Below, piece after piece: positions 3 to 51,586 of a stretch of 51,586 nt of DNA. The notes below the pieces were generated by a model, which was given only the letters and a program-made list of their open reading frames with translations, had not been told where the DNA came from and made no database searches. This DNA is from Verrucomicrobiales bacterium (GTDB lineage Bacteria; Verrucomicrobiota; Verrucomicrobiia; Limisphaerales; JAQGOY01). Every line of letters begins with the position of its first letter. Position 1 is the stretch's first letter. The stretch is from the NCBI GenBank assembly GCA_028293375.1, contig JAQGOY010000228.1, forward strand, positions 1-51,586, in the 5' to 3' direction. A program made the translations under genes and the position numbers.

Positions 3-674
3 CAGTATGGTTTAACCGCATCGAGTATTAAGAACAGTTTGTTCTATTCCAGTTTGAGCGCCACGGTGGACCTGGTTCTCGGGGTCATTATTGCGTGGCT
101 GTTGACCCGTAGGAAAATTCCGTTTGCCTGGCTCCTGGACGCCCTTGCCATGCTGCCTCTTGCCTTGCCTGGCCTTGTTCTGGCCTTCGGCTACGTGGCT
201 GGTTTCGATACCCAGGGATGGGCTAAAAATTTCCTGAACCCACGCTACAATCCGACCTTGCTACTGGTCATCAGTTACTCGGTACGCCGATTGCCTTATA
301 TCGTTCGGGCAGCCTATGCCGGGTTTCAGCAAACTTCCATTACGTTGGAGGAAGCGTCCGCCAATCTGGGCGCTTCACCGCTGCGCACTTTGATCAAGAT
401 CACCCTCCCGCTCGTCGCCGGAAATCTAATTGCTGGCACTATCCTCACCTTTTCCTTCGCCATGCTTGAAGTGAGCGACGGCCTCATTCTTGCGATGAAG
501 GAAACGTATTATCCCATCACCAAAGCCATCTACCAAATCATAGGCCGGGTAGATCCGACAGCGCCCAGTCTGGCTTCTGCTCTGGGAGTCGTGGGAATGC
601 TGATTTTGACAGCCAGCCTCCTGATCGCTGGAAGGATTCTGGGTAAAAAGATGGGTCAGCTCTTCCGGGCATAA
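3..674 (+). CDS. ABC transporter permease, Fe3+/thiamine (FbpB/ThiP-like) family; 5'-truncated by window edge
   Basis: Frame open from base 3; hydrophobic segments, LPLALPGLV motif and canonical EAA loop LEEASANLGASPLRTLIKITLP. Confidence 0.88.
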   Translation, partial: QYGLTASSIKNSLFYSSLSATVDLVLGVIIAWLLTRRKIPFAWLLDALAMLPLALPGLVLAFGYVAGFDTQGWAKNFLNPRYNPTLLLVISYSVRRLPYIVRAAYAGFQQTSITLEEASANLGASPLRTLIKITLPLVAGNLIAGTILTFSFAMLEVSDGLILAMKETYYPITKAIYQIIGRVDPTAPSLASALGVVGMLILTASLLIAGRILGKKMGQLFRA

Positions 675-23997: not shown

Positions 23998-24066
23998 TAG
24001 GGCCAATTCCCTAATACTTTCCGAGACTTAGCCCTGATTGTGAGCTCGGGGGAGTGTGTTTATATA
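23998..24066 (+). promoter_or_regulatory. Putative kinase promoter: palindrome TAGGG-N6-CCCTA plus CCCTGA-TTGTGA-N17-TATATA
   Basis: CCCT(A/G) at 23985, 24009 and 24032 (24 and 23 nt apart). Confidence 0.5.
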
Positions 24067-24075
24067 GGGCTTTCC

Positions 24076-36284: not shown

Positions 36285-37670
36285 TCAGTCTCGCGAGAAT
36301 TTGAGGGAAACCAATTTCTTTTCGCTTCGGATATAAAGGCATTTTTCCGAGAGCGCTGGCGTTGACCAGCAGGGATGTTCCAACTGGGTAATTTGGGCGT
36401 GGCAGATTTCTTCCATTTTCCTGCTGTTTAATTTGAAAAGCCCAAGTTTCCCTCCCTCTCCAAGGGCAATCAACTTTCCGTCTGCCATTATCAACGATCC
36501 ACGCCCATAGACTGCCGGCTGTGGTGTGCTGTGCGGAGCCCAGGTTTCGTCATTGTCCCACATCAATTCACCGCTTTTGTAGTGCACACATCTCAGGCGG
36601 GCGTCCGGTTCGTTTCTTCCGCTAAATCCATACAAATATCCGTCGTAATAAATCGGTGTGCTCCAGTGCATTTCCAGGGATGTGGAACGCCACCCTTCAT
36701 GAATTTCTTTGTTGTCGGGATGTATTTTCAGAAGCACCGATCCCACGTGATAATAAGCGCCGGAAATAAAAACGTCGTTATCGACTACTATCGGGCTCAT
36801 CGCATTGACCGATTCGTCTACCCTCGCTCTGAACCAAAAACTGAAATCGCAGACTCCGGTCTTTGGCTCCAGCGCCACCAATCCCTGCCTCATGAAGCAG
36901 AACACCAACTTTTTGCCATTCACTGTTGCTATCGCGGGAGTCGAATAACTCGCTTGCTTCTCATACTTTCTCCACTCCACTTTTTTTTCGCCCGGCCATG
37001 CCGTCATTGGAATTCCGGTCCAGTTTATCTCCCCAACATTTTCCCACACCGTCTTTCCAGTTTCGGGATTAAGCGCAACAACTCCGCTGTTCGGTTGCCC
37101 TCCAATCGCGACTATCAGCAAGTTGTCTTCCAGCACCGGTGAACTTCCTACCCCGAAAAATGCCTCGGGAATTTCAAATTCTTTCGCCGTATCTCTCTGC
37201 CACAACACGGTGCCGTCTTTTAGATCAAGGCATCGAATTTTTCCTTCCGCCCCGAAAGTGAAGCATTTGTTCCCTGCCAACAACGGCTGACTTCGGGGAC
37301 CGTTATTGTAACCGTATGGATCTTGAAATTTTGAAGGATAGGCACTTTTCCAGATCTCCGCCCCGGTTTTCTTGTTCAGGCAATGAACCACTTCCTCCCC
37401 TCCGACCCTGTCAAAATAGATCAACTTTTCTCCAAGCACAGAAGGCGAACAATAACCTGTGCCGATGTCTTTTTCCCAAAGAACTTTAGGGCCTGAAGCG
37501 TCCCACTTCTCAAGAAGGTTTGTCTCAGTTGACGTTCCATTTCGTGCAGGCCCCAGGAACTGAGGCCAATCTGCCGCTCCCGCTGTGCAGGCCACCGCAA
37601 AGCCCGCGATCAGGGCCGCCAGTGCTGGTCGAGCGCCGCCCAGTCTACCTCTATTTGGAAATGACTTCAT
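36285..37670 (-). CDS. Secreted PQQ-like (BamB-like) beta-propeller protein
   Basis: Signal peptide ...AGAA/DWPQFLGPARNG, GPRSQP, SSPV, W.TP...LYIR. Confidence 0.88.
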   Translation of the reverse strand: MKSFPNRGRLGGARPALAALIAGFAVACTAGAADWPQFLGPARNGTSTETNLLEKWDASGPKVLWEKDIGTGYCSPSVLGEKLIYFDRVGGEEVVHCLNKKTGAEIWKSAYPSKFQDPYGYNNGPRSQPLLAGNKCFTFGAEGKIRCLDLKDGTVLWQRDTAKEFEIPEAFFGVGSSPVLEDNLLIVAIGGQPNSGVVALNPETGKTVWENVGEINWTGIPMTAWPGEKKVEWRKYEKQASYSTPAIATVNGKKLVFCFMRQGLVALEPKTGVCDFSFWFRARVDESVNAMSPIVVDNDVFISGAYYHVGSVLLKIHPDNKEIHEGWRSTSLEMHWSTPIYYDGYLYGFSGRNEPDARLRCVHYKSGELMWDNDETWAPHSTPQPAVYGRGSLIMADGKLIALGEGGKLGLFKLNSRKMEEICHAQITQLEHPCWSTPALSEKCLYIRSEKKLVSLKFSRD

Positions 37671-39072
37671 TCTTAAAACAATACAGTGTTTTCTCGCCGC
37701 GCAGGTAGATGCTTCTGCCCGCAATTGCCGGCGTGGCCATGGTTTGTTCATGGAAATCATGGCTGCCCAGGATGGATAATTCGGGCGTGTTCCTGACGAT
37801 GGTCATTTTTCCCTGCTGCGATAAAAAGTAAAGGTTGTCTCCGGCCGCAACCGGCGAAGCATAGTAGTCTCCAGGCGCGCCCAATCGTTCCGCCTCCACC
37901 AGCGCTTTCCCTGTCAGCAGGTCGTAACAGGAAAGCATTCCCCCATTTTTCACCGACCAGATTCGGCCCTGGTAGAGCAGGGGCGAGCTGACATAGGACA
38001 GATGCTTTGTTTGCTTCCAAATCATGTGAGTGGCAGTAATGTCTCCCGTTCCACCGGCTCGGATGGAGAAAATGCTGTTCTCCGCCTTCTGAAACATTTC
38101 CGCCATTTTCGTCCATTCCTCACCAGTGACTGATCCGTCCTTGTTAAAATCCATCTGCGTAAATCGGTCTTTGATCACGCCAGAAGGCAACTCATCAAAC
38201 TGGAGTTTGCCATCGCCGTTCTTGTCGTTTGTCTTTAGGAACTCCCCAAATTCAGGCATACTGACCCGGCTGTCCGAATCTCCACCTACATTCCAGGAAC
38301 AATAAACCAGTAAATTGCTCGTGCAACTCGGCGTGCTCGTTGCCACTCGTGAAGTCCCCGCCACCCGCCATCGTTCTTTTCCGGTTTCGGGGTCGTAACC
38401 CGTTAACCAGATCGATCCCGGAACCACCAGGTCCGTCCGGTTCGATTGAGCCCATATGATGGGACTGGCGAAACCGCGCCGAAATTCCGGCCTGTTCACT
38501 CTCCACTTCTGGTTCCCTGTCTTTTTATCCAATGCTAATAAGTAGGAGTCCTGATCCTGATCCACAATCAGGAAAAGCGTATCATTCCATAATAAGGGAG
38601 ATGTGCCCGTGCCAAACTCCACCATCGGCGTCGGCAGTCGATGTTCCCATTTCGCTTTGCCTTCCATGTCGTAGGCAACAACTCCAAAGGACCCGAAATA
38701 GGAATAAACCATGGCGCCATCGGTTGCAGGTGTGGGGGTCGCTGGATTCCCAAGTCGATGTGTTTTTTCCAATGCCGTCGCTGTCACCTTTTGCGACCAC
38801 TTCATTTCGCCTGTTTTCGTGTCGTAACAAAGGGTGATCAGATCATTGGAAACCATGCCTGTAATAAACAACTGGTCTTCCCAGATGATCGGGGATGAAT
38901 TCCCCGCAGGGATTGTGATTTTCCATGAGGGAGGAACCTCAAAGCGGACGGGTGCGTCATGGCCGCTAACCGCCTGCAATGTTCCGCCCCGAAATTGCGT
39001 CCAATTTTCCGCCATCGCAGCCCCCTGCATGGCGAATGCAATCAGCAAACCAACAATTCTTCTTAAGGGCAT
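37651..39072 (-). CDS. Secreted PQQ-like beta-propeller with EF-hand pair insert
   Basis: NWTQFRG, SSPIIW, YASPV, ATPAI; DKNGDGKLQFDE and DFNKDGSVTGEE loops. Confidence 0.88.
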   Translation of the reverse strand: MPLRRIVGLLIAFAMQGAAMAENWTQFRGGTLQAVSGHDAPVRFEVPPSWKITIPAGNSSPIIWEDQLFITGMVSNDLITLCYDTKTGEMKWSQKVTATALEKTHRLGNPATPTPATDGAMVYSYFGSFGVVAYDMEGKAKWEHRLPTPMVEFGTGTSPLLWNDTLFLIVDQDQDSYLLALDKKTGNQKWRVNRPEFRRGFASPIIWAQSNRTDLVVPGSIWLTGYDPETGKERWRVAGTSRVATSTPSCTSNLLVYCSWNVGGDSDSRVSMPEFGEFLKTNDKNGDGKLQFDELPSGVIKDRFTQMDFNKDGSVTGEEWTKMAEMFQKAENSIFSIRAGGTGDITATHMIWKQTKHLSYVSSPLLYQGRIWSVKNGGMLSCYDLLTGKALVEAERLGAPGDYYASPVAAGDNLYFLSQQGKMTIVRNTPELSILGSHDFHEQTMATPAIAGRSIYLRGEKTLYCFKNEVISK

Positions 39073-39105
39073 GCTTGTCCGGTCGGTGTTCAGTTTTTCA
39101 CCTGG

Positions 39106-40167
39106 CTATTTTCCCGGCATGACCCCGTGGGTGGTGGTTGATATCCTTAGCAGATCATGGTTGGAGGTAATATACAGAACAGAACCGTCTTCACCCCACG
39201 CGCAATTCGCAGTGGGTTGGCCGGTATACAAGGTTCCTAAATGTTCTCCCTGGGGTGAAACAACGAGCAAACCGCCCGGTCCCGTCACGAAAAGGTTTCC
39301 ATGCACATCCACTTTCAATCCATCCGGTCCCCCGGGCCCATCTTTCACCAGGGGTTTGGCATCAAAGAAAACTCTACCGTTTTGGATCGTTCCATCCGGC
39401 TGCACGTCGTATATCATCACCACCGGCTTGTTTCCGTCGGATACCGCAACATAGAGCTTTTTCTCATCAGGTGAAAAAGCGATTCCATTGGGGAACGTCA
39501 CCTCTTTCGTCAGTAGCTCCAATTCCCCGGTTTTTTTGATTCGATAAACCCCATTAAAGTTCAATTCACGATTTTTGCTGGTCATGCCCCCTTCCAGGCC
39601 ATACGAGGGATCGGTGAAATAAATGTCTCCATTCGATTTGTAAACCAAATCATTGGGGCTGTTAAGCTGTTTCCCCTGGAAAAGATGAGCGAGTGTTGTC
39701 TTCGTTCCGTTTTTTTCGAGCCTGGCAATTCTCCGGTCCCCATGCTCGCATGACGTTAACCTTCCCTCCTTGTCCAATGTAAGACCGTTGGAACCTGGTT
39801 CCCCGCCGCGCGGCGTCGAACCGGTGTATCCGCTGGGTTGAAGATATTTGGAAATACCTTCTCCCTCTTTCCATTTATATATCGTGTTGCCGATGACATC
39901 CGAAAAAACAACGCAATGGTCCTTTGGCAACCAGACAGGTCCTTCAGACCATTGGAATCCTGACGCCAATTTTTCGATCGAAGTTCCCGGTGCTATGAGT
40001 GAATCCAACTTTGGGCTTTTGCGGCGGACTTCGCCGTATGCGGGATATTGCACCCTTTTCGCCGCAGGCGGGGTCACCGACGATTGTTTCGAAGTCGACT
40101 CGCAGCCAGTGACAATCGAAAGCGAAAGGATGGATGCCAATAAAATGGTTTGGTTGGAAGCATTCAT
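39106..40167 (-). CDS. SMP-30/gluconolactonase-family lipoprotein
   Basis: Lipobox IVTGC; WSEGPVW, SNGL, NSPND, FTDP, PNGI, PDGLKVD. Confidence 0.9.
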   Translation of the reverse strand: MNASNQTILLASILSLSIVTGCESTSKQSSVTPPAAKRVQYPAYGEVRRKSPKLDSLIAPGTSIEKLASGFQWSEGPVWLPKDHCVVFSDVIGNTIYKWKEGEGISKYLQPSGYTGSTPRGGEPGSNGLTLDKEGRLTSCEHGDRRIARLEKNGTKTTLAHLFQGKQLNSPNDLVYKSNGDIYFTDPSYGLEGGMTSKNRELNFNGVYRIKKTGELELLTKEVTFPNGIAFSPDEKKLYVAVSDGNKPVVMIYDVQPDGTIQNGRVFFDAKPLVKDGPGGPDGLKVDVHGNLFVTGPGGLLVVSPQGEHLGTLYTGQPTANCAWGEDGSVLYITSNHDLLRISTTTHGVMPGK

Positions 40168-40371
40168 GGTTTTAACTATCATTCTCCTACTGTTGGGCTG
40201 TGCAAGCGAAAACCACAAATATATAAAGGTTCCGCTGCCACTTGGTTTTTCTTTTGGCGCATTTCTTAAATTCTCTGGTTTTTCTCATTAGCTTTTTATA
40301 ATTTCATCTGAACGCCCGGATGTGTTTATTAGTCGATACTCCAAAACTGATTCCTAACTCTGGAAATTTAC

Positions 40372-41373
40372 ATGACCATCGAAGAACAAATCTCTCTTTT
40401 CCGATCCAGCTATTCACGGCTTCGCACCGAAATTGGCAAAGTGATCGTCGGCCATGAAAAAATAGTGGAGGGGACGTTATTTGCCATCCTCAGTGGGGGA
40501 CATGTTTTGCTGGAGGGAGTGCCCGGCCTCGGTAAAACGTTGCTCGTTCGTACTCTGAGCGAAGTCCTGGATCTTTCTTTTAATCGCATTCAATTCACCC
40601 CTGATCTGATGCCGGCTGACATCATCGGCACAAACCTGGTCATGGAAACTCCGGATGGCAAAAGAATCTTCCAGTATCAAAAAGGACCCATTTTCGCCCA
40701 CCTCGTCCTCGCCGATGAAATCAATCGCGCCACTCCAAAAACCCAATCTGCCATGCTGGAAGCCATGCAGGAAAAGAGCGTTACCGCAGGTGGTGAAATT
40801 CGCCGTCTTGATCCTCCCTTCTTCGTCCTGGCAACCCAGAATCCTATTGACCAGGAAGGTACCTATCCACTTCCCGAAGCACAGTTGGACCGTTTTTTCT
40901 TCAAACTCGTGGTCGGTTATCCCAGCGCTGCGGAACTGAATGAGGTTCTCTCCCGAACTACCGGTGGAACCACCGCCCAGGTCGAAAAAGTTTTATCGAA
41001 GGAAGAATTGATGGGCCTGCAAAAGCTCGTGAAGGATGTTCCAGTGGCCAACCATGTCCGGGACTTCGCCGTCCGCATTGTTTTGGCTACCCACCCGAAA
41101 ACCGAAACCGCATTGCCCGTTACCAATCAGTTCCTGCGGTTCGGCAGCAGTCCTCGCGGCGGTCAAACTCTCCTGCTCGCGGGCAAAGTCCGCGCACTGG
41201 CTGAAGGCCGATTTAATGTCTCCTTTGATGATATCATTGCCGTCGCTCCCCATGCTCTCAGGCATCGCTTGATTCTTAATTTCGAAGCCGAAGCAGAAGG
41301 AATTACGACAGATCACGTGATCGACCAGATCCTCGCGACGGTTCCAAAGGACAATGCGCTGCTCTCCAGGTAG
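40372..41373 (+). CDS. moxR: MoxR-family AAA+ ATPase
   Basis: EGVPGLGKT, RIQFTPDLMPAD, LADEINRA, ATQNP, YPLPEAQLDRF, GSSPR. Confidence 0.95.
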   Translation: MTIEEQISLFRSSYSRLRTEIGKVIVGHEKIVEGTLFAILSGGHVLLEGVPGLGKTLLVRTLSEVLDLSFNRIQFTPDLMPADIIGTNLVMETPDGKRIFQYQKGPIFAHLVLADEINRATPKTQSAMLEAMQEKSVTAGGEIRRLDPPFFVLATQNPIDQEGTYPLPEAQLDRFFFKLVVGYPSAAELNEVLSRTTGGTTAQVEKVLSKEELMGLQKLVKDVPVANHVRDFAVRIVLATHPKTETALPVTNQFLRFGSSPRGGQTLLLAGKVRALAEGRFNVSFDDIIAVAPHALRHRLILNFEAEAEGITTDHVIDQILATVPKDNALLSR

Positions 41374-41378
41374 TCGTC

Positions 41379-42275
41379 ATGAGTCAGCCCATCCTCAGCC
41401 TCGAACTGATGCGAAAGCTGGAGCAGTTTCAACTCACTGCTTCCCGCAAGGCATTCAGCTCGTTTAAAGGAGAACGGAGAAGTCAGGCTCGCGGAATATC
41501 CGTGGAGTTCGCCGATTTTCGAAACTACGTCGCTGGCGATGACTTCCGTTATCTGGATTGGAATTTATTCGGTCGTCTCGACCGTTTGTATCTCAAACTT
41601 TACGAGGAAGAGCGGGAATTGCCGGTTCGCATCTTCCTGGATTGCAGCAAGTCCATGGACTTTGGTTCACCCGCGAAGTTTGATTTCGCCAGGCAGCTGG
41701 GGGCCGCGATCGGTTACACCACCTTGGTCGGCTTTGACCGGGTGAGTTTTATTCCCCTTCCTTCCGAAGCGGGTGCCAGCTCGGTCGTGAGTTTCCTGCG
41801 GGCGTTGCGGGGACGCAAGCAGGTGCTTCCCTTCCTCAAATCGCTTGAACTTTTGAAGGCTTCCGGGTCACTCGCCTTCGATGCCGCATTGCGAAAAGCC
41901 GCACTGGAAACCCGCCAGGTCGGATTAGCCGTGGTCATTAGTGATTTCCTGGATCCCCAGGGCTACGCCGTCGGTTTGAATGCGCTCGTAGCCCGTGGTT
42001 TCAAGATTTTGGTCATCCAGGTGCTGTCGCCGGAAGAGTTGGACCCCAGCACTTTCGGAGACCTGCGGTTGATTGATTCCGAGACCGGTTCCATGCAGGA
42101 AGTGACCTTCGGGAAATACCGCCTGGACGCTTACAAAAAAACAGTGGCTAATTATTGCCAGGTACTAAGGGAGTTTTGTGGACAGCGGGGCATTGCTCAT
42201 TTCCTCTTTCCCAGCAACGCCAGCCTGGAGCAGGTTTTGCTCAAGGATTTTCGAAAGGCAAAAATTTGGGGATGA
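41379..42275 (+). CDS. DUF58 domain protein
   Basis: EFADFRNYVAGDDFRYLDWN, DCSKSM, ISDF; follows moxR. Confidence 0.92.
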   Translation: MSQPILSLELMRKLEQFQLTASRKAFSSFKGERRSQARGISVEFADFRNYVAGDDFRYLDWNLFGRLDRLYLKLYEEERELPVRIFLDCSKSMDFGSPAKFDFARQLGAAIGYTTLVGFDRVSFIPLPSEAGASSVVSFLRALRGRKQVLPFLKSLELLKASGSLAFDAALRKAALETRQVGLAVVISDFLDPQGYAVGLNALVARGFKILVIQVLSPEELDPSTFGDLRLIDSETGSMQEVTFGKYRLDAYKKTVANYCQVLREFCGQRGIAHFLFPSNASLEQVLLKDFRKAKIWG

Positions 42276-42294
42276 AACACCGGAGCCACAGGAA

Positions 42295-44130
42295 GTGAAG
42301 TTTTTATTGCCAGCGGCATTTTCGTTTGCAGCGACAATCCCCATTGTCGTGGTCTTTTACTTGCTCAAGCGTAAACGAACCGAAAAAATCGTTTCCAGCA
42401 CTTTGCTCTGGCAAAAATACCTCGCAGAAACTCAGGCCAGTTCTCCATTTCAAAAACTTAAAAATAATTGGCTTCTTTGGTTGCAACTTCTTTTCCTCCT
42501 TCTCCTGCTCTTTGCCACCGCTCGGCCCTATTTTTCAGGACACACTCAAAAATCGCAACTTCGCGTCATCATCCTCGACGCTTCTGCCTCCATGAAGAGC
42601 AGGGATGTCCTGCCGAACCGCTTTGAAAAGTCCAGGGCCGATGTCCTGACGTTGATCAACGGCATGTTGGACGATGACGAATCCATTTTGCTTCTGGTTT
42701 CATCCCGCCCGCAGGTTAAGGTTTCAGCTACTTCCAATAAAAGCGCGCTTCGCAAAGGCCTCGCCGATTCGGAGGCCACCGATGCCAGGACAGGGCTCAG
42801 TGAGGCGTTGAAACTTGCTGAGACATTGACCCGCGATCGTATCGGTTCTGAAATCCATCTTTTTTCGGATGGTGCAGTTAAAACCCTGGGTGAATTCGAA
42901 AATAAAGCGCTGAACGTTATTTACCACCAGGTCGGGGTGGGGAATAGGAATCTTGGAATCATCGGCCTCGATATTCGGGAGAATCCTGAAAACCGCGCCC
43001 AAAGGGCGGTTTATGTCAACGTGGCGAATTTTTCCACCAACTCCGAAACGGTCGTGCTCAAGCTTTCGCTCGATGGCAGGGAGATCAACCAGCAACCACT
43101 TTCCATAGCTGCCGGACAGACCGTGCCCAGTGTTTTTATCTCTTCTCAGGAAAAAGATGGGGTTTTTACCGTGTCGATTGATGCCGCGGACGATCTCGCC
43201 ACAGACAACAAGGCATCCATACCCAGCCTGATTTCGCGTCCCGTTAAGACTCTGCTCGTTACCAGGGGTAATCGCTTTTTGGAAAAGGCTTTGCGCGCCG
43301 CTCCGAATGTCGAATTGCAAGTGTCGGAGGATTTTGCCGGCAACCTCGTTCCATCACCGGATCTGGTCGTACTGGATAACGTGGTTCCAAAGGTATGGCC
43401 TGGGATCAACACTCTGGCTTTTCACGTCGATAATACAAATTGGTTTAATGTAATGGGGGTGACTCCGAACCCCGCGCTTGTCGATTGGAAAATGGCTCAT
43501 CCCGTCCTGCGCTACGCCAGCATGGATAATGTTCAAGTCGCCGAGACCATGACCATCAAGACCCCCGCCTGGGCCGAGGTCCTTGCCGAGTCGCAGCAGA
43601 CCCCCCTCATTCTTGCCGGTGAGGTGGACCGTCACAAAGCCATCTGGGTCGGCTTTGATAACCTGCAAAGCACCTGGCCACTTCGCATTTCTTTTCCCAT
43701 CTTCATTGCTAATTCTGTGAAATGGCTTTCTCCAAACAGCCTCGGCGCTGACTTGATGGTGAATGCCGGCGACCCATTCAGGCGCACTTTTTCGGAGCCC
43801 GTTGCCTCTTATGAACTTCGATTTCCAGATGGACACACCGCGAAATTTCAAAACGAAACCAATAGTTTCGAAGTGGTTGTTGGCGCCACTGACACCAGCG
43901 GCATTTATCGGTTGACCACCGGTACCAATCAACTTGATTTCACTGTCAATTTGTTAAACCCCGAGGAAAGCAACATCACCCCTGCTTCTGCACTGACTTT
44001 CGGCAAATTTACTAAAGTGGAAGCGACCCAAGCGACTCTCGGAAACAAGGAAATTTGGAAATATTTCACTCTTGCCGCGTTGTTCTTTCTTCTCTTCGAG
44101 TGGTGGTTTTATCACAGGAGGACCGCTTGA
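42295..44130 (+). CDS. BatA N-terminal + vWA domain membrane protein
   Basis: GTG start; IPIVVVFYLLKRKR, LQLL...ARP, ILDASASM MIDAS, FSDG, C-terminal TM ...EWW. Confidence 0.87.
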   Translation: MKFLLPAAFSFAATIPIVVVFYLLKRKRTEKIVSSTLLWQKYLAETQASSPFQKLKNNWLLWLQLLFLLLLLFATARPYFSGHTQKSQLRVIILDASASMKSRDVLPNRFEKSRADVLTLINGMLDDDESILLLVSSRPQVKVSATSNKSALRKGLADSEATDARTGLSEALKLAETLTRDRIGSEIHLFSDGAVKTLGEFENKALNVIYHQVGVGNRNLGIIGLDIRENPENRAQRAVYVNVANFSTNSETVVLKLSLDGREINQQPLSIAAGQTVPSVFISSQEKDGVFTVSIDAADDLATDNKASIPSLISRPVKTLLVTRGNRFLEKALRAAPNVELQVSEDFAGNLVPSPDLVVLDNVVPKVWPGINTLAFHVDNTNWFNVMGVTPNPALVDWKMAHPVLRYASMDNVQVAETMTIKTPAWAEVLAESQQTPLILAGEVDRHKAIWVGFDNLQSTWPLRISFPIFIANSVKWLSPNSLGADLMVNAGDPFRRTFSEPVASYELRFPDGHTAKFQNETNSFEVVVGATDTSGIYRLTTGTNQLDFTVNLLNPEESNITPASALTFGKFTKVEATQATLGNKEIWKYFTLAALFFLLFEWWFYHRRTA

Positions 44131-45047
44131 CCGGTAATTTTAGATGGTTCATCTTTTTGCTCGCCGCCAGTTTGTTTTCGGGCTGTGGCAGGGGGTCCAA
44201 TGAGGTGATTCTTTACACTTCGCAGGACCAGGTTTTTGTCGAGCCGTTGTTGAAGAAATTTCAAGCCGATTCCGGCATCATTGTCAGGTCTGTCTTTGAC
44301 AACGAATCGGTGAAGACCGTTTCACTGGTCAATCGTCTCCACGCGGAAAAGGGTAATCCACAATGCGATTTGTTCTGGAATAACGAATCCTTCCGAAGCT
44401 TCCAACTTGCCCAGGAGGGCCTCGTCGATCCCCGTTACCCCGTTAAAACCTTTGGGTTCAGGACCAGGCGCATTGTTGTCCACGATCCCCCTCCCGCAGG
44501 TTTTGAAATTCCTTCCAGCTTCAGGGATCTGACCAACAAAAGTTATTTTGGAAAAATTGGGTTTGCTTATCCCATTTACGGAACCACCGGAACTCACTTT
44601 CTCGCCCTGCGACAGCAATGGGGAACCAACGCATGGCTGCAGTGGTGTCAGGCTCTCCAGGCCAACAAACCCTTCATTGTGGACGGTAATTCTGCCGTCG
44701 TGCGCCTTGTTGCCTCAGGAGAAATCTGGCTGGGTATGACTGATTCCGACGATATCGCTTCCGCCCGTGAGGAGCATGTTCCTGTGAAAGGGCTTCCGCT
44801 GAGCGTCGATTCTTTGCGCATTCCCAATTCCATTGCTCACATTGCAGGAGCGCGTCATGTCGAGAACGCAGAAAAGCTGGCTTTATTTCTTCAACTTCCC
44901 GAAACCATCGCTGCTCTTCAGGAAGCACACGCTTTGGAAAAGGAAGGGCAGGGGACCACCGGTTTGTCATCGCCGCCCGATTTCCAACTCATGTTGGCCG
45001 ATTTAAAAACTGCGACAGAGCAGATGCTCCAATTATTTAAAAAGTGA
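44127..45047 (+). CDS. ABC substrate-binding lipoprotein, Fe3+ (FbpA/AfuA)-like
   Basis: TTGA overlap start; lipobox LFSGC; YTSQD, AEKGNPQCD, GTTGTH, TDSDD. Confidence 0.85.
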   Translation: MTGNFRWFIFLLAASLFSGCGRGSNEVILYTSQDQVFVEPLLKKFQADSGIIVRSVFDNESVKTVSLVNRLHAEKGNPQCDLFWNNESFRSFQLAQEGLVDPRYPVKTFGFRTRRIVVHDPPPAGFEIPSSFRDLTNKSYFGKIGFAYPIYGTTGTHFLALRQQWGTNAWLQWCQALQANKPFIVDGNSAVVRLVASGEIWLGMTDSDDIASAREEHVPVKGLPLSVDSLRIPNSIAHIAGARHVENAEKLALFLQLPETIAALQEAHALEKEGQGTTGLSSPPDFQLMLADLKTATEQMLQLFKK

Positions 45048-47416
45048 CTTGGACATCCACCATCAACAGCCTGTTAGTGGCGGCCAGTTCCGCAGGAATG
45101 GCCACCCTGCTCGGTTTGATTGCTGCCATGTCTGCCGCCAGGTATCCGCGCGCGGGGAAAGCCCAACAATTTGCCTGGTGCCTTATACTTGCCTTGCCGC
45201 CCTTCTTCGTCACCAGCGGTTGGCTTTATTTCTTTGGATTTACCGGTGAGTTCAAATCTTTTCTACCTTTTAATTTATTCAGCCTTTCGGGCTTGACCTC
45301 CATTCTCGTTTTTCTCTACTGGCCCGTTGCCGCCTGGATTTTCCATCGTCGTCTTCCTGCGCTTGCGCCACCGTATTGGGAATGGGAAACTCATTGGACT
45401 CTCTTACGGTTTTGGCGCGTCGTCCTCTTGCCTTTCCTGCGTCCTGCTTTCGCTACATCATTTTTAATAATCTTTGTCTTGTCGATTACCCAGTTCAGCG
45501 TCCCTTCACTCCTCCAGGTCAAAGTCTTGCCCGAAGATGTCTGGCTCCGCATGAACGCAGATCTCAATTATAAGACCGCTGCCCTGCTCCTGTGCCCCAT
45601 GTTGATTTCCATTGCCCTGGTTCTTTACTCCATTAATAAATTTGGAATATTTAAAGGCAGTAATTTCGCCACCTCGGGCGTTGCTGCTCTCCCTCCGGGA
45701 ATGGTTCCTGGGTTGTTCCAATTCATTGCCTGGGGCGCAATTGTTGTTTCGGTATTCCTTCCTGTGGCACCCGTGGCGGGGTCCCTCCAGACCTGGCTGT
45801 CGCTTCGCTCCGCGCTCATCGCGAATATCGCGCCCCTTACCTTGTCCATTCTCACCGCCATCCTCGTTCCCCTCCTCATTTTTTGTTGTTCCCGGGTCCT
45901 CTCAGGGCGCTGGATGGTTCATCTCTCCGCGTTGCTCTTCCTCGCTCCAGGTCTCGCCATTGCCTGGGTTTTAATCGTCGTCTTTAATCGCCCCGTGCTC
46001 GGTTGGTTTTACCCCAGCCTCGGTTGTGTTTTTTTATGTCTTATCATTAAATACTCCGCACCTCTGATTTTTGGAGATTTTCTGGGAATACGCACGAATC
46101 TGAAAAGCCACCTCGCTCTCCTCGATATGGAAGGCGCTGGAAAGGTGAAGGCGAATTTGCTCCTCGCTCCGCTTGCCTTCCAGGAACTCCTCGGCCCCAT
46201 GATTGTCACCGCTTTGCTTGTCATCTGGGATGTTGAAACCGTCGTCATGATCATGCCCCCCGGTCGCGAGACTCTCTCCTTGCGCGTGTTTAATATGCTT
46301 CACTACGGCCACAATAGCCAAATCAATGCCATCGGAGTCATTTTGATGGGTGGAGCTTTGTTCACCGCTGGCATTCTTATCTGCCTGCAACTTTTTTGCC
46401 GGCGCTTTTTTCACCGGATTTTGGTCCGTTGTTTTTTGGTGGTTCTCACCCTGTTCAGTTTTTCGTGTTCCCCCAAAAATGAAACTTCTGCCGCAACGGG
46501 TTCTCCCATCCATAACAGTAAATTATTCAGTGCTGTCCAAATCATCGGTGGCAAGGGAGCCGGGGCCGGTCAATTTAATAAACCCCGATCTGTGGCCGTC
46601 GACGACAATGACAATCTCTACGTCGTCGACATGACTGGTCGCGTCCAGAAATTTGACGATCACGGGTTGTATTTGAGCAGTTGGCAAATGCCCCAGACTG
46701 ATCTCGGCAAACCCAAAGGCATGTGCATCGACCAGGCCGGGAATCTTGTCCTGGTGGAGCCGCACTATTCCCGGTTGAATTACTTCTCCAAAACGAACAG
46801 TTCACTTCTCGCCCAATGGGGTGTGCACGGAACCAATGATGGCCAACTCGCTTTCCCTCGTTCAGCCACTGTTCTTGGAGATGGCCGGACATTCGTCACA
46901 GAATACGGTCAATGCGAACGCGTCTCCTGTTTTAGTGCTTTCGGTTCCCGGTTTCTTTTTTCCTTCGGAACTCCCGGCGATGGCCCTGGCCAGTTTAATC
47001 GTGCTGAAGGCGTTTGTTCCGACTCCAGGGGCATGCTCTACATCGCAGACTCCTGCAACCATCGTGTCCAGATTTTCAATTCCGATGGCAAATTTGTTAG
47101 CGCCTTCGGCAGTCCTGGCAGGGATCCCGGCCAGATGAACTATCCCTACGATGTTCGCGTCGATGCGGAAGGCTATTGTTTTGTCTGCGAATTCGGCAAC
47201 AGCCGCATCCAGGTATTCAAGGGTTCGAATGTTCCAGTGGAAGTCATCGGGCGTGGCGGCAGTGAACCCGCTGAATTTTCCAACCCGTGGAGCATCGCCC
47301 TCGATAAGCATGGCAATTTATTTGTGGCTGACGCCATGAATCACCGGGTTCAAAAACTCTTGAGAAAACACGAAAGCGCCAGCCGGCAGGCAATGGAGAA
47401 AAAACAAGCTCTGTGA
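45044..47416 (+). CDS. ABC-permease-like membrane domain (two halves) fused to C-terminal NHL-repeat beta-propeller
   Basis: NSL...LPPF..., PPGRETLSLRVFNMLHYG; NHL repeats FNKPRSVAVD, FPRSA, YIADSCNHRVQIF, FVADAMNHRVQK. Confidence 0.82.
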   Translation: MTWTSTINSLLVAASSAGMATLLGLIAAMSAARYPRAGKAQQFAWCLILALPPFFVTSGWLYFFGFTGEFKSFLPFNLFSLSGLTSILVFLYWPVAAWIFHRRLPALAPPYWEWETHWTLLRFWRVVLLPFLRPAFATSFLIIFVLSITQFSVPSLLQVKVLPEDVWLRMNADLNYKTAALLLCPMLISIALVLYSINKFGIFKGSNFATSGVAALPPGMVPGLFQFIAWGAIVVSVFLPVAPVAGSLQTWLSLRSALIANIAPLTLSILTAILVPLLIFCCSRVLSGRWMVHLSALLFLAPGLAIAWVLIVVFNRPVLGWFYPSLGCVFLCLIIKYSAPLIFGDFLGIRTNLKSHLALLDMEGAGKVKANLLLAPLAFQELLGPMIVTALLVIWDVETVVMIMPPGRETLSLRVFNMLHYGHNSQINAIGVILMGGALFTAGILICLQLFCRRFFHRILVRCFLVVLTLFSFSCSPKNETSAATGSPIHNSKLFSAVQIIGGKGAGAGQFNKPRSVAVDDNDNLYVVDMTGRVQKFDDHGLYLSSWQMPQTDLGKPKGMCIDQAGNLVLVEPHYSRLNYFSKTNSSLLAQWGVHGTNDGQLAFPRSATVLGDGRTFVTEYGQCERVSCFSAFGSRFLFSFGTPGDGPGQFNRAEGVCSDSRGMLYIADSCNHRVQIFNSDGKFVSAFGSPGRDPGQMNYPYDVRVDAEGYCFVCEFGNSRIQVFKGSNVPVEVIGRGGSEPAEFSNPWSIALDKHGNLFVADAMNHRVQKLLRKHESASRQAMEKKQAL

Positions 47417-50274
47417 AGTTTTATTTTTCAAATCCAATTTGGTTGTGGGCGCTGATCCCTGTTTTGGGTTGGGTCTGTTGGTTTGGGCTTCGTTCGTCAC
47501 TTTCTCTTTCCCCATGGCGCAAGGCCCTTTCCATTGCGTTGCGAATCATTATTGTTCTCCTCGCCTTGTTCGCTCTTGCCGGACTTCAATTGCAAAAGCC
47601 CATCGAGGGCATGAATACTTTTTATCTCCTGGATCGCTCCCAAAGCGTCCCGTTCGCCCAGCAGGAGGCCGCCCGCCTCATGGTCATCAGGCAAATCTCT
47701 CAAAAAAAACCGAATGACAAGGTGGGTGTCGTGGTTTTCGGGGCGGATGCCGCCATTGAGAGTTCCGTCTCCCCAGTGCTTGGCCTCGATAAAATTCAAT
47801 CCGTCATCAACGCCAACGGAAGCGATATTGGCGCCGCGCTGCGTCTGGCTTCCGCCGCGTTCCCGGAAGCAGGTCAAAAGAAAATGGTGCTCTTCTCTGA
47901 CGGAAACGAAAACCTGGGGGATGCGCTTTCCGCAGTGGTTTCGGCCCGCCCCCTCGGTGCCACCCTCGACATCGTTCCACTTGGATCCGCTCGGGCTCAT
48001 GATGTTGCCGTTGAAAAAATTGCCCTGCCTCCCAATCTGAAAAAGGGCCAGACTTTTGATGTTAAGATTTTTCTGAAAAGTGATGCCGCCACCAGGGCGA
48101 ATCTGCGCTTGTTTAAAAACGAGCAGTTACTTGGAGAACAACAGGTCGACCTGAGTGAAGGAAAAAATCTCTTCACCTTTCCCCAGGAACTGGCGGATCC
48201 CGGCTTTTACCAATATTCCGTCCAGGTGGATGTAGCAGGGGACGTTGTTCCTCAAAATAACCACGCTTCCGCCTTCGCCAATGTCAAAGGTGAACCGCGA
48301 ATTTTGGTAATTTCTTCCGACCCCTCAAAGGACGCGCCCCTCGCCAAAGCTTTAATTTCTGGAAAACTCGAAGTACGCATGGGAGGAATCGAACTCTTTC
48401 CAAAATCGCTGGCGGAAATGAACAGCTACGATTCCATTTTCCTAAGCAATATTGGGGCAGGGGAAGCGAGTCGTGAATCATGGCAACTCCTGGAGAGCGC
48501 CGTCCGCGATTTCGGCGTGGGTCTTGTCTGCCTCGGCGGAGATCAAAGTTACTCTGCCGGTTCTTATCGCGGAACTCCCCTCGAGGACACTCTGCCTGTC
48601 AGCATGGACCTTAACAGTAAAAAGGTGCTTCCTTCAGGAGCACTGGTGCTGGTCGTGCATGCCACAGAATTTCCCAATGGGAATCAGTGGTCCCGCGATA
48701 TCGCCTTCGCAGCTTTGAATGGTCTGGGACCTCTCGATGAAATGGGAGTTGTCTTATGGAATGGCACCGATCAATGGCTCTTTCCCCTTCAAAAGGTCGG
48801 AGACAAGAAAAAAATGGGTCAACTGATTTCCGGGATGACGCCCGGCGATATGCCCAGTTTCAAAAACGTCATGAAAATGGCTTACACCGGCCTCAAAGAT
48901 TCGAAAGCTCACCTGAAACACATGGTCGTTTTCAGCGATGGCGATCCTGGCCGTCCCGATGACTCGGATATCCAGGACATTGTGAATGACAAAATCACTA
49001 TCAGCACCGTGATGATCGGTGGCCATACCGCTCCCGATAACATGGTCATGATGGCCAACGCAGGACACGGGCAATTCTATGATGTCCGTTCTGCGGAAGT
49101 GCTGCCTCAGATTTTTATCAAGGAATCGGCTGTCATCCTGAAGAGCGCCATCTTTGAAGAGCCTTTCATTCCCAAACTCGTCCAGGCTTCCGAACTCGTC
49201 CAGGGCATCGCCGCTGCTGAATATCCCGAACTGCAGGGATATGTTTGCGTCACTCCCAAGGGGCGCGCCGAGATTCCTCTGGTCTCCGACAAGGGCGACC
49301 CCATTCTTGCCCACTGGCAGTTTGGACTTGGCCGCTCCGTGGCCTACACTTCCGACGCCAGGGCCAAGTGGGCTCGAAACTGGCTCGATTGGGCCAAATA
49401 CCAGCAATTCTGGACTCAAGTGGCTCAATGGAGTTTGCGCAGAATTGAAAATAGTGAGTACAACACGGATATTAATATTGAAAAAGGAACCGGGAAATTG
49501 AATGTCGAAGCCCTCGATAACCAGGGTAACTTTCGTAATTTCCTCGATCTTCAAGCCCTGGTGGTCGATCCAAAGGGCCAGAAACAAACCGTCCGGCTTG
49601 AGCAAACAGGTCCTGGCCGCTACGAAGTAAATTTTCCTGGCCGCGAAGTTGGTTCCTACCTCGTAAATCTCGTCTCATTGAAGGATGGCAAGGTGCTTTC
49701 CTCACAGGCCTTGGGAGCCAGCGTGAACTATTCACCGGAATTCGCTTCCGCCGATCCCAATTTCAATCTCTTGCAAAGGCTGGCCGATGCGGGCGCCGGC
49801 AAAATCCTCCTTCCGGAGGAGAATCCCTTCCTCCTTGGCCGGAAACGAACATTTCAACCTCTGGATCTCCTCACTTTCCTCCTCAAGTGCGCCCTGGTCC
49901 TGTTCCCTCTGGATGTGGCCATACGCAGGATTCATTTGGATCGCTCCGATTGGGCGCTTTTCCTCGCTGGTTTACGCAATCGATTGTTCTGGAAAAGGGC
50001 TAAGCCTTCCGTAGCCTCGGAGGAAAACATGGGTTCGTTGCTGGCCAAAACAAAACAAACACGCGATCGCACCTCCTCGGCCCCGGCCATCGATCCCAAA
50101 CTGTTCGTCCCTAAGGCAGCCCCAAAAGATGTGCCACTCCCCTCATCTGTGCCAAAAGTTCCCCAGCAATCCTCCCCGGTGGAACTTTCCAAACCATCCA
50201 CACTGGTCCCCCCGCCTCCCTCCACCGCTTCAGCGCTTCTGGAAGCAAAGAAACGGGCTAAAAAGAAATTATAG
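47413..50274 (+). CDS. Membrane-anchored vWA + GATase1-like + vWA protein
   Basis: LLDRSQSV MIDAS, FSDGNEN, GLVCLGG..SY..G.Y..TPLE..LPV, PILAHWQFGLGRSVAYTSD, W...W..Y..FW; Pro-rich tail. Confidence 0.85.
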   Translation: MKFYFSNPIWLWALIPVLGWVCWFGLRSSLSLSPWRKALSIALRIIIVLLALFALAGLQLQKPIEGMNTFYLLDRSQSVPFAQQEAARLMVIRQISQKKPNDKVGVVVFGADAAIESSVSPVLGLDKIQSVINANGSDIGAALRLASAAFPEAGQKKMVLFSDGNENLGDALSAVVSARPLGATLDIVPLGSARAHDVAVEKIALPPNLKKGQTFDVKIFLKSDAATRANLRLFKNEQLLGEQQVDLSEGKNLFTFPQELADPGFYQYSVQVDVAGDVVPQNNHASAFANVKGEPRILVISSDPSKDAPLAKALISGKLEVRMGGIELFPKSLAEMNSYDSIFLSNIGAGEASRESWQLLESAVRDFGVGLVCLGGDQSYSAGSYRGTPLEDTLPVSMDLNSKKVLPSGALVLVVHATEFPNGNQWSRDIAFAALNGLGPLDEMGVVLWNGTDQWLFPLQKVGDKKKMGQLISGMTPGDMPSFKNVMKMAYTGLKDSKAHLKHMVVFSDGDPGRPDDSDIQDIVNDKITISTVMIGGHTAPDNMVMMANAGHGQFYDVRSAEVLPQIFIKESAVILKSAIFEEPFIPKLVQASELVQGIAAAEYPELQGYVCVTPKGRAEIPLVSDKGDPILAHWQFGLGRSVAYTSDARAKWARNWLDWAKYQQFWTQVAQWSLRRIENSEYNTDINIEKGTGKLNVEALDNQGNFRNFLDLQALVVDPKGQKQTVRLEQTGPGRYEVNFPGREVGSYLVNLVSLKDGKVLSSQALGASVNYSPEFASADPNFNLLQRLADAGAGKILLPEENPFLLGRKRTFQPLDLLTFLLKCALVLFPLDVAIRRIHLDRSDWALFLAGLRNRLFWKRAKPSVASEENMGSLLAKTKQTRDRTSSAPAIDPKLFVPKAAPKDVPLPSSVPKVPQQSSPVELSKPSTLVPPPPSTASALLEAKKRAKKKL

Positions 50275-50441: not shown

Positions 50442-50879
50442 ATGAAGACTAAACTCAAATTCACCAAGCTGGTTCTCGCCGCCTCTTTAGGCTCGCTCAT
50501 CTGGGCCGGTTGTTCTACCAACAATCATCAAGCCTTTAACTCTAATGATCACAGCATCACTGCTTATCCTCTTTCAGCGGATGTGCCCGTCCCAGTCGAT
50601 CAAACCAAACGCCGCCCCGATACCCATCCTGAGCTTCGCCGGGGTGCTTGGGACTTCACCTACAGTGGCACTCAACAGGTTGTAGAAGCTCCCAACATTC
50701 AGGATGCTCCTCCCGGAACGGTCGATTCTCCTGTTCTCCTTGGCTACGAGCCTGAATATCGTAACGCCTTCGCCGCCACTCAGGGCGATGTGATCAACGA
50801 AGCCGCCGGTGCCAACAGCGACCGGAAGTCCAAAAAGGTGATCATTCGCGAACGCCACGACGACAATCTCAATTACTAA
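50442..50879 (+). CDS. Small hypothetical lipoprotein
   Basis: MKTKLKFTKLVLAASLGSLIWAGC lipobox; INEAAGA motif; followed by terminator. Confidence 0.8.
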   Translation: MKTKLKFTKLVLAASLGSLIWAGCSTNNHQAFNSNDHSITAYPLSADVPVPVDQTKRRPDTHPELRRGAWDFTYSGTQQVVEAPNIQDAPPGTVDSPVLLGYEPEYRNAFAATQGDVINEAAGANSDRKSKKVIIRERHDDNLNY

Positions 50880-50908: not shown

Positions 50909-50939
50909 ACCCTCCAGGTCATCCTGGAGGGTTTTTTTT
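50909..50939 (+). terminator. Intrinsic terminator
   Basis: ACCCTCCAGG-TCAT-CCTGGAGGGT followed by T7. Confidence 0.9.
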
Positions 50940-50965
50940 GTACATAACTTTTGTTAAAAAAATAT

Positions 50966-50994: not shown

Positions 50995-51062
50995 CTCGTC
51001 GCCTGGACTGCTCTAGAGTGGTGTAAAATCACTCTTTCGCTTTGCTGCAATACGGTAACGTT

Positions 51063-51586
51063 ATGTCCCAAAAATTCGTTATTTTAATAAAATCAGTACT
51101 GTTCGTGTTCTTGATTGCCATCGCTTCGTTTCGCGCTGCAGCCACCGAGCTCTCTTTCTTTGCCAGCTACACCAATGTTGATTACGTCTCGGCCGGAGTC
51201 GGCGGTTTGCGTGAGACTGGCTATGGTGACATCTCGTTGACCGGGGTTAGCGGCACGATTAAAAAAGCCTATCTTTACTGGCATGGCCACGGCAAACAGG
51301 GAGATTACGATGCTTCCATCACCAACGCTTTGGTTTTCATTAATGGCAATCCCGCCCAGGGACAGGTGATCGGGACCTCCGGCCCCAATGGTTGGAACTT
51401 TCCTCCCTACAACTTTTATTTCGGCCAGGCTTTCCGCGCTGATGTGACGGATCTGATCACCGGCAACGGCACTTATACAGTGAGCGATTTCGATCCGCTT
51501 CCCTTCACCATTCAGGGCGCTTCCCTGATCGTCATCTTTGACGACGGCATCACCACCAATAACCGGGACATTACGCTCTACAATGG
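51063..51586 (+). CDS. Secreted protein with DUF3344-like N-terminal domain; 3'-truncated by window edge (absent from ORF track)
   Basis: MSQKFVILIKSVLFVFLIAIASFRAAA signal; KKAYLYWHG, AFRADVT, GASLIVIFDDG; frame open to the end. Confidence 0.75.
   Translation, partial: MSQKFVILIKSVLFVFLIAIASFRAAATELSFFASYTNVDYVSAGVGGLRETGYGDISLTGVSGTIKKAYLYWHGHGKQGDYDASITNALVFINGNPAQGQVIGTSGPNGWNFPPYNFYFGQAFRADVTDLITGNGTYTVSDFDPLPFTIQGASLIVIFDDGITTNNRDITLYN

Follow-up and report, generated by a model that had tools for sequence, protein, structure and literature searches.

A solute-binding protein, permease and NHL cassette inside a Bat-type MoxR/VWA gene cluster of Verrucomicrobiota

Ferric importers of the FbpABC, HitABC and SfuABC kind (FbpBC, 9j4r; FbpA, 7w3w and 1d9v) are ATP-binding cassette (ABC) systems in which a solute-binding protein (SBP) and a fused permease work with the ATPase FbpC. 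In importers of the MsiK and MsmK type and in UspABC of Mycobacterium tuberculosis, which are CUT1 carbohydrate systems, the ATPase is encoded elsewhere or shared. Another kind of locus is the Bat-type MoxR operon, in which a MoxR ATPase (AAA_3), a DUF58 protein and BatA, with two transmembrane (TM) helices and a VWA domain, stand in this order and are presumably joined by further Bat proteins, BatB-E, with TPR repeats. A passage of PMC3557215 describes the function of the Bat proteins as still undefined, and a passage of PMC5700661 reports VWFA proteins adjoining MoxR in Borrelia. Kaur et al. (2020, PMC7159879) write in their main text that VWA proteins are the partners through which MoxR ATPases act, and that MoxR, vWA and beta-propeller proteins also form ternary conflict systems. 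Here we describe a gene cluster which combines two of these known kinds, the Bat-type MoxR operon and the FbpAB importer. It occupies positions 40372-50274 of a stretch of 51,586 nucleotides (1-51,586, hereafter the window), which is one entire contig (C160) of a 4.1-Mb genome bin, 75.6% complete, of a Verrucomicrobiales bacterium.

The cluster shares with Bat-type operons the genes for MoxR, DUF58 and BatA in the same order, whereas no TPR family is among the Pfam matches of its six proteins or of a small downstream open reading frame (ORF), and it has in addition a VWA/GATase1-like protein of 953 residues and an inserted cassette of SBP, permease and NHL propeller. The SBP and the fused permease have the predicted folds of the FbpABC-type proteins; unlike in those importers, however, there is no FbpC gene in the window, the iron ligands are absent, the permease carries a C-terminal NHL domain and its EAA-type coupling loops are altered. 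A likeness to the MsiK, MsmK and UspABC type lies in an SBP-permease pair that has no ATPase gene beside it and, in most cassette members, intact coupling loops, but those are carbohydrate systems, whereas the pair is embedded here in a MoxR/VWA cluster and no shared ATPase was identified. As for the ternary conflict systems, which likewise unite MoxR, vWA and propeller in one locus as the main text of PMC7159879 describes them, they carry effector domains, none of which is seen here, and BatA and NHL are not mentioned in that main text. The window MoxR scores 46.8 bits with Pfam bpMoxR, over the cut-off of 27, against 206 bits with AAA_3, which fits far better, and no effector domains were found. 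The conflict-system reading was set aside as probably not applying here. No description of the SBP-permease-NHL cassette was found in the literature searched; JGI names relatives 'ABC-type Fe3+ transport system permease subunit', and there are automatic names such as 'ABC-type Fe3+ transport system permease subunit/streptogramin lyase'. The explanation that we favour, with about half of our confidence behind it, is that the cassette makes up half of an importer and draws on an ABC ATPase whose gene lies elsewhere, the coupling having been retuned or weakened in the lineage of the window.

Gene content and conservation of the cluster

ORF calls and Pfam matches give six ORFs on the same (+) strand, encoding MoxR, DUF58, BatA-VWA, SBP, permease-NHL and VWA/GATase1-like proteins; this is the layout that an earlier note had read from the letters of the window, and its overlaps at the last three junctions are real as well, four nucleotides each. 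The MoxR-type AAA+ ATPase (40372..41373, +; 333 residues; Pfam AAA_3 1.9e-61, AAA_lid_2 1.1e-15) shows in its translation a Walker A (GVPGLGKT) and a Walker B motif (LADEINR), and is 74-79% identical to its orthologs in related loci. The DUF58 protein (41379..42275, +; 298 residues; Pfam DUF58 9.4e-29) is VWA-like with the DxSxS motif DCSKS. The BatA-type membrane protein (42295..44130, +; Pfam BatA 1.1e-11, VWA_2 1.3e-12; NCBIfam two_anch) is made of a two-TM N-terminal domain, a VWA domain with a DASAS motif and a C-terminal TM helix; the longest version of its ORF runs from 42178, and the GTG at 42295, preceded by GGAG, was taken as its start. Its end overlaps the SBP gene (44127..45047, +) by TTGA at 44127-44130, an overlap valid only if the in-frame TTG is the SBP start. 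By GTGA at 45044-45047 the SBP gene overlaps that of the permease-NHL fusion (45044..47416, +), a protein of 790 residues with about 12-13 TM helices and NHL repeats (Pfam NHL 4.7e-27), and a further GTGA at 47413-47416 leads to the gene of the VWA/GATase1-like membrane protein (47413..50274, +; Pfam GATase1_like 1.9e-17, VWA 5.5e-15, VWA_3). In the 953 residues of the latter, two N-terminal TM helices are followed by a VWA domain (DRSQS motif), the GATase1_like domain, a second VWA domain, a C-terminal TM helix and a basic tail. DxSxS metal-site motifs are present in all three VWA-type proteins of the cluster.

Conservation was examined in 60 related genomes of the same order, no two of them from one family, and in a pattern scan of species genomes, which found 303 stretches. 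Locus counts refer to the best 80 of these, with our own ORF calling and BLASTP, and the denominators are the loci with room for the gene in question. The membrane domain of the permease was matched in 40 of the 60 relatives, and orthologs of the VWA/GATase1 protein, 46-62% identical, were likewise found in 40; the best 80 stretches are labelled Verrucomicrobiota, Limisphaerales or Pedosphaera, plus some bins with odd labels. One and the same gene order is seen in 20 loci from the related genomes and in the 80 species-genome loci, at least nine contigs being common to both sets, which argues that the layout is more than chance, and as judged from these sequences the cluster is conserved across one verrucomicrobial order, in bacteria of soil and freshwater. 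A second clade was reached from a distant fused relative of the permease (P0037), which led to 194 metagenome stretches, and 80 loci of this clade 2 were kept.

Among the 80 species-genome loci, BatA was found in 51/56, NHL in 56/60, the VWA/GATase1 protein in 53/60 and the SBP in 53/72, and MoxR and DUF58 in 19 of the 36 having at least 9 kb upstream. SBP and permease are syntenic with the BatA and VWA genes, and often with moxR, which is within reach at only 19/36 loci. The permease is always beside or fused to the NHL and VWA/GATase1 gene. In one related genome (G023; locus L132, contig C9), MoxR, DUF58, BatA and VWA/GATase1 occur without SBP, permease and NHL between them, so that the SBP-permease-NHL trio behaves as a cassette. 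Beyond the order, the membrane domain has a match at E<=1e-25 in 12 of 250 genomes sampled from the phylum. The contexts of four such homologs were inspected: three (in G064, G295 and G248) lie in operons of permease and nucleotide-binding domain (NBD) or of SBP, permease and NBD, and the fourth (G308) has an SBP and a permease with no NBD within the 13 kb examined. With the nearest outside homologs in NBD operons, the cassette would therefore descend from a complete importer which lost its ATPase linkage.

The binding protein, the membrane domain and its coupling loops

Sequence profiles and structure models together indicate that the SBP and the permease derive from a ferric-type FbpA/FbpB pair. 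The SBP is a predicted lipoprotein with an LFSGC lipobox (Pfam SBP_bac_11 3.5e-12). A profile of 55 orthologs finds the FbpA family in the PDB, with 7w3w at 1e-21; its AlphaFold2 model has a predicted local distance difference test (pLDDT) of 93.6, and Foldseek matches it to 7w3w at 9.3e-22 and to FbpA, HitA and FutA at about 1e-20. By profile, model and Foldseek alike, its fold is that of the class II periplasmic binding proteins in the FbpA cluster. The ligands of Fe3+ in FbpA we take to be His9, Glu57, Tyr195 and Tyr196 in Haemophilus influenzae numbering. In a HMMER alignment to Haemophilus FbpA, His9 corresponds to the invariant D34 and Tyr195/196 to the invariant D208/D209, Glu57/Gln58 become N86/E87 and Asn193 becomes D206, and Arg101 is kept as the invariant R112. 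Every FbpA ligand position thus maps to an invariant or nearly invariant column of the SBP family, and the window SBP retains all the family invariants, pocket residues included. Ferric iron was rejected as the ligand, the residues that bind it being absent; the pocket is conserved with another chemistry and is therefore no ferric-tyrosinate site. Rich in carboxylates and with two arginines, it suggests a hard cation or a metal-anion complex.

The membrane domain of the fusion, residues 1-472 (45044..46459, +), is a fused 12-TM FbpB-like domain by AlphaFold2 and Foldseek, with no PF00528 match. Its model, built for the whole protein on an alignment of 52 fused orthologs, has a pLDDT of 86.6 and a predicted TM-score (pTM) of 0.82. 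For the membrane part the nearest Foldseek structure is 9j4r_A, the FbpBC of Thermus thermophilus (E 1.2e-12, 461 columns, target TM-score 0.71), and the fold is that of two tandem six-helix importer modules, as in the membrane domain of a type I ABC importer. In sequence there is a faint PotC likeness (NCBIfam 7e-5; PDB 8y5g_C, E 0.07). Orthologs do match PF00528, among them that of the related genome G042 (28.2 bits), a member of clade 2 (32.2 bits) and several database relatives.

In the window, however, this domain has by its sequence diverged far faster than its neighbours and is a fast-evolving outlier. The median identity of the window to its orthologs is 0.31 for the TM domain against 0.48 among the orthologs, whereas the corresponding values are 0.56 and 0.62 for NHL, 0.57 and 0.63 for the VWA/GATase1 protein, 0.52 and 0.58 for BatA and 0.45 and 0.54 for the SBP, and the ratio of TM to NHL identity is the lowest among 71 taxa. 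The reading frame is intact over 790 codons, 65 of the 90 columns conserved at >=90% are kept, family signature motifs included, and a near-identical protein (P0003) is on record. Motifs of the translocation path are conserved in the family as in working relatives, and the periplasm-side motifs PPG.ET and FN.LHYGH are kept in the window permease.

The earlier note had quoted two strings, LAPPYWEWETHW and LKSHLALLDMEGA, from the EAA-loop positions of the permease and had taken them as degenerate coupling helices. Both strings are present there, and they align with the EAA loop of PotC and with the two conserved coupling loops of the orthologs, as loop 1 (residues 104-131; 45353..45436, +; aligned to PotC and orthologs) and loop 2 (residues 350-378; 46091..46177, +; aligned to orthologs). 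The classical motif we take to be EAA-x3-G-x9-I-x-LP. In 80 orthologs loop 2 reads DAARLEGAS..WQ.FRHV.WPQ, in keeping with this motif, and for loop 1 the pattern is L-E-x-D-P-x-L-R-G-x(4)-R-x-L-L-L-P; clade 2 too keeps EAA loops in both halves. In loop 1 of the window E113, R125, L128 and P130 are retained and the 90%-conserved glycine is gone (G120L). Its loop 2, which reads LALLDMEG, retains G364, A365 and P376 and has the changes D353L, Q377L, W368V and R371N. At columns conserved >=80% the window agrees with the family at 4/7 in loop 1, 3/9 in loop 2 and 79/121 elsewhere. The degeneracy claimed earlier stands in part for this copy, whose loops are partly eroded with G120, D353 and Q377 lost, and not for the family, where the 80 orthologs and clade 2 keep both loops. 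As far as the alignments tell, the degenerate loops are a peculiarity of the lineage and not the design of the system. Since both loops are conserved in the 80 orthologs and in clade 2, it can be argued that the family still docks an ABC ATPase-like partner.

As a separate observation, there is a subgroup of loci in which batA abuts the permease and no SBP gene is present (L055, L073, L085, L086, L093, L103, L104, L107, L109, L113 and L127), and in most of these loop 2 reads ..AMARLEGA.. instead of ..DAARLEGA...

The membrane domain is joined to a six-bladed NHL beta-propeller (46490..47371, +; Pfam NHL 4.7e-27; Foldseek NHL domains of 6xg7, 1.8e-20, and of TRIM2/71). Between them lies a thirteenth hydrophobic segment (46379..46468, +; by ortholog alignment), which ends in Cys475 at a lipobox position and reads FSFSC. 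All 52 fused proteins in the alignment have this cysteine with the hydrophobic segment before it, and 46 of 56 fused forms have the strict lipobox pattern, the orthologs being mostly L-x-G/S-C. NHL is fused to the permease in 56 cases and separate in 11, and 10 of the 11 separate NHL ORFs begin with a signal peptide and a lipobox. From this pattern the propeller would be a periplasmic lipoprotein, and the fusion may be cleaved at the conserved cysteine, which suggests processing of a polytopic fusion protein by signal peptidase II. A lipobox retained between a polytopic permease and a lipoprotein domain thus suggests an unusual route of maturation.

Candidate ATPases and the surroundings of the cluster

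That no ABC ATPase gene accompanies the pair, as the earlier note had stated, is borne out: none of the 68 PF00005 matches of the genome is on this contig. A linked NBD is also rare among the relatives, with 2 of the 80 species-genome loci, both upstream and on the other strand, and 1 of the 20 loci from related genomes, 4.5 kb past the cluster; no importer-type NBD was found in the 80 loci of clade 2.

Two ATPases encoded elsewhere in the genome were considered. The one on contig C10 is PhnT2/FbpC-like and also PotA-like (353 residues) and adjoins a PhnS2-like SBP and rpoD, with no permease; its ortholog in G042 has 66% identity and the same rpoD-APRT context. The canonical permease concerned is the one at 3..674 (+) of the window, outside the cluster, where the LEEASANLGAS that the earlier note used for comparison is indeed found. 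This ORF, truncated where the contig stops, encodes the C-terminal part of a fused permease of the canonical PhnU2/FbpB-like kind (PF00528 2.1e-13) and shares 81% identity with residues 348-566 of the 566-residue permease of G042; the missing N-terminal part is found at the end of contig C45 (C45:7007-8059), so that the permease is split over two contig ends. In the near-complete G042 the canonical 566-residue fused permease is likewise unlinked to an ATPase. Over the 60 relatives, which are not independent of each other and in each of which 34 candidates were scored, 15 have both the C10-type ATPase and the canonical permease, 2 have only the one, 2 only the other, and 41 have neither. This co-occurrence makes the C10 ATPase and the canonical permease a likely pair, and dispersed ABC genes do occur in the order. 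Here a scattered canonical PhnSTU2/Fbp-like importer is seen, at 3-674 of the window, C45:7007-8059 and C10:4376-6910.

The other ATPase, at C86:32419-33522, is a UgpC/MalK-like NBD and an orphan; its Walker motifs are intact, its signature is LSGGE, and its gene sits among housekeeping genes, flanked by a pseudouridine synthase gene on one side and hypothetical genes on the other. None of the 60 relatives has an ortholog of it at E<=1e-60. Since this genome alone of the 61 searched carries it, it was rejected as the partner of the family; it remains a candidate ATPase for this lineage only. A complex predicted for the window TM domain with two copies of this NBD scored 0.51 (runs 0.51, 0.53 and 0.50), with 0.11 for the best of three controls, the runs agreeing in >=85% of contacts and the partner having a pLDDT >=80. 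The mark is reached by 58/80 solved complexes and 2/110 mismatched pairs, but with scores <=0.60 it is passed by only 7/80 solved complexes and by both of the passing mismatches. The prediction gives weak support and shows at most that the cytoplasmic face of the window permease still looks dockable. In five well-assembled relatives, most orphan NBD matches were rejected as belonging to Mla-type operons; PotA-like orphans in two of them (G028, G034) were rejected as well, their mutual identity being only 46% and no counterpart being present in G030 or G009.

Downstream of the cluster, a small predicted lipoprotein of 145 residues (50442..50879, +; ORF call and Pfam search) is probably the last gene of the transcription unit. 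Neither this ORF nor that at 51042-51584 had a BLASTP match at 1e-3 in three related-locus sets. A terminator-like hairpin with a 10-bp stem, 7 of them GC pairs, and then a T run follows at 50909..50942 (+; hairpin 50909-50932). It is the only site to stand out in a promoter and terminator scan, whose counts are not above those of shuffled sequences (21 sites versus a mean of 16.7). On the other side, head to head with moxR, three beta-propeller genes lie at 36285-40218 (-), two of them PQQ_2/BamB-like, one with an EF-hand, and one SMP-30/gluconolactonase-like. Farther upstream, 24040-31875 (+) encodes a hybrid sensor kinase of 2611 residues with 15 HAMP stretches, GAF, HisKA, HATPase_c and three receiver domains.

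The envelope module and the explanations weighed

Clade 2 places the cassette in a wider setting. Its gene order is SBP, permease/NHL, VWA/GATase1, MoxR, DUF58, BatA, a 717-residue protein and an ABC ATPase, and among the loci with room the SBP is present in 59/59, VWA/GATase1 and MoxR in 36/36 and the ATPase in 20/20. The 717-734-residue membrane protein, which has a weak DUF7408/DUF4350 likeness, directly follows batA in clade 2, and the ATPase, whose gene overlaps the end of the 717-residue gene by four bases, is of the DrrA/ABC-2 type. The genome of the window carries the same pair of 717-734-residue protein (X734) and ATPase on another contig (C136:4124-7146); ATPases of this type in relatives are 69-78% identical, and in G029 and G050 a fused ABC-2 permease follows. 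An ATPase with its own ABC-2 permease is therefore not the missing FbpC, and the ATPase after BatA in clade 2, translationally coupled to the 717-residue protein, was rejected as such. Among the 60 relatives, X734 and the cassette permease are both present in 35, with the permease alone in 5, X734 alone in 4 and neither in 16; for X734 and the VWA/GATase1 protein the counts are 37 both, 3 VWA/GATase1 alone, 2 X734 alone and 18 neither. By this shared phyletic pattern, the MoxR/VWA module, the cassette and the ABC-2 transporter look like parts of one larger envelope system.

Should the cassette be half of an importer with its ATPase in trans, the following arrangement can be proposed. The frame would be a Bat-type MoxR/DUF58/BatA module plus the large VWA/GATase1 membrane protein, with the three-part cassette inside, and DUF58 would be the likely cytoplasmic partner of MoxR. 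From their charge distribution, BatA and the 953-residue protein would each be held in the membrane by a helical hairpin at the N-terminus and a helix at the C-terminus, their VWA domains being periplasmic and placed to encounter both lipoproteins, SBP and NHL. Once it has bound its ligand, which may be a small one of cationic or metal-anion kind, the SBP would dock on the FbpB-like domain. In most members the energy for transport would come from an ABC ATPase of another locus, and the copy of the window would either be retuned to a lineage-specific orphan ATPase or have lost tight ATP coupling. In favour of this proposal, the loops, the translocation-path motifs and the acid-rich SBP pocket are kept in the family, which is therefore most likely still a working importer or a gated conduit.

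Several results weigh against the importer half. The search turned up no ATPase that is present and absent together with the cassette: the C10 ATPase, which tracks the canonical permease and is missing from 25 of the 40 cassette-bearing relatives, was rejected as a dedicated partner, and the five well-assembled relatives have no consistent orphan importer-type NBD. The pass of the predicted complex may reflect likeness only, since similar importer complexes are solved. An adjacent SBP is missing in 19 of 72 loci, in 11 of which BatA abuts the permease, so that SBP-dependent import may not be a constant role. In the window itself, residues 1-480 of the permease match no Pfam family even at E 10, and the PF00528 search of the genome missed them. 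Agreement with the consensus at the 70% level is 7/24 in the loops versus 93/169 elsewhere (Fisher p 0.027), although the concentration of residue loss in the loops is not significant at the 80% or 90% level and is weak overall.

Part of this evidence would also fit a platform with no ATPase, in which permease, SBP and NHL sense a ligand or anchor the periplasmic VWA proteins and the loops bind DUF58, MoxR or the ABC-2 ATPase. We hold this for a possible though doubtful alternative. It would account for the scarcity of importer-type NBDs in cis (2/80 loci and 0/80 in clade 2), for the lack of an NBD with a matching phyletic pattern, for the constant company of NHL and the VWA/GATase1 gene, for an SBP dispensable in 19/72 loci, and for window loops eroded while the SBP pocket and the PPG.ET and FN.LHYGH motifs are kept. 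However, the 80 orthologs and clade 2 keep the EAA-G...LP spacing and residues, as docking of an NBD predicts, and the translocation path is conserved as in working relatives; moreover, no membrane domain of a type I importer is known to us to work with a partner other than an NBD. A related but more specific proposal, which we consider improbable, goes further: the cassette would be a conduit or sensor gated by the binding protein and without an ABC importer ATPase, passing a hard-cation-type ligand to the metal ion-dependent adhesion site (MIDAS) of BatA and of the VWA/GATase1 protein, as part of a larger envelope machine of the Planctomycetes-Verrucomicrobia-Chlamydiae (PVC) group comprising MoxR, DUF58, BatA, VWA/GATase1, X734 and the ABC-2 transporter; its loops would engage a partner within the machine, and the window lineage, with loops rewritten, would be an end state.

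The divergence of the window copy could otherwise mean decay, that is, relaxed selection on the membrane domain after loss of the ATPase, the domain being kept through the NHL fusion and translational coupling. A TM identity of 0.31 versus 0.48 where the neighbours are only 0.05-0.09 lower, the lack of a Pfam match, the atypical lipobox FSFSC and the loss of G120, D353 and Q377 all speak for it. Decay is nevertheless unlikely in our judgement, for the 790-codon frame is intact and the near-identical P0003 is on record, 65/90 columns conserved at >=90% including the signature motifs are kept, all SBP invariants are retained and the AlphaFold2 model is confident. Least of all do we expect what the earlier note proposed, namely a pair repurposed for metal delivery or sensing and driven by MoxR instead of an NBD, which we regard as very unlikely. 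It is true that moxR is co-oriented and 3 kb upstream, that it belongs to the same gene string in 19/36 loci and in 36/36 of clade 2 with room for it, that the SBP has a ferric-binding fold with an acidic pocket and that all three VWA-type proteins have DxSxS metal-site motifs. But 17/36 loci have no moxR within about 9 kb, the conserved EAA loops of the orthologs point to an NBD-type partner, and the SBP has no iron ligands; MoxR acts through VWA partners by the main text of PMC7159879, a role for which DUF58 is the obvious candidate in this cluster. There is no sign of an action of MoxR on the permease, and the idea that it drives transport found no support.

The function of the Bat-type MoxR/VWA module has been open for decades, and here a ligand-binding protein and a transporter half are wired into it. 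The cassette is spread over at least 303 species-genome stretches and 194 metagenome stretches of clade 2. To know the ligand of the SBP would give the first chemical handle on what Bat-type modules handle. In addition, the family offers a natural test of whether the membrane domain of a type I importer can work when its energiser is unlinked, shared or non-canonical, and in this test the fast-evolving copy of the window serves as a natural mutant of the coupling loops.

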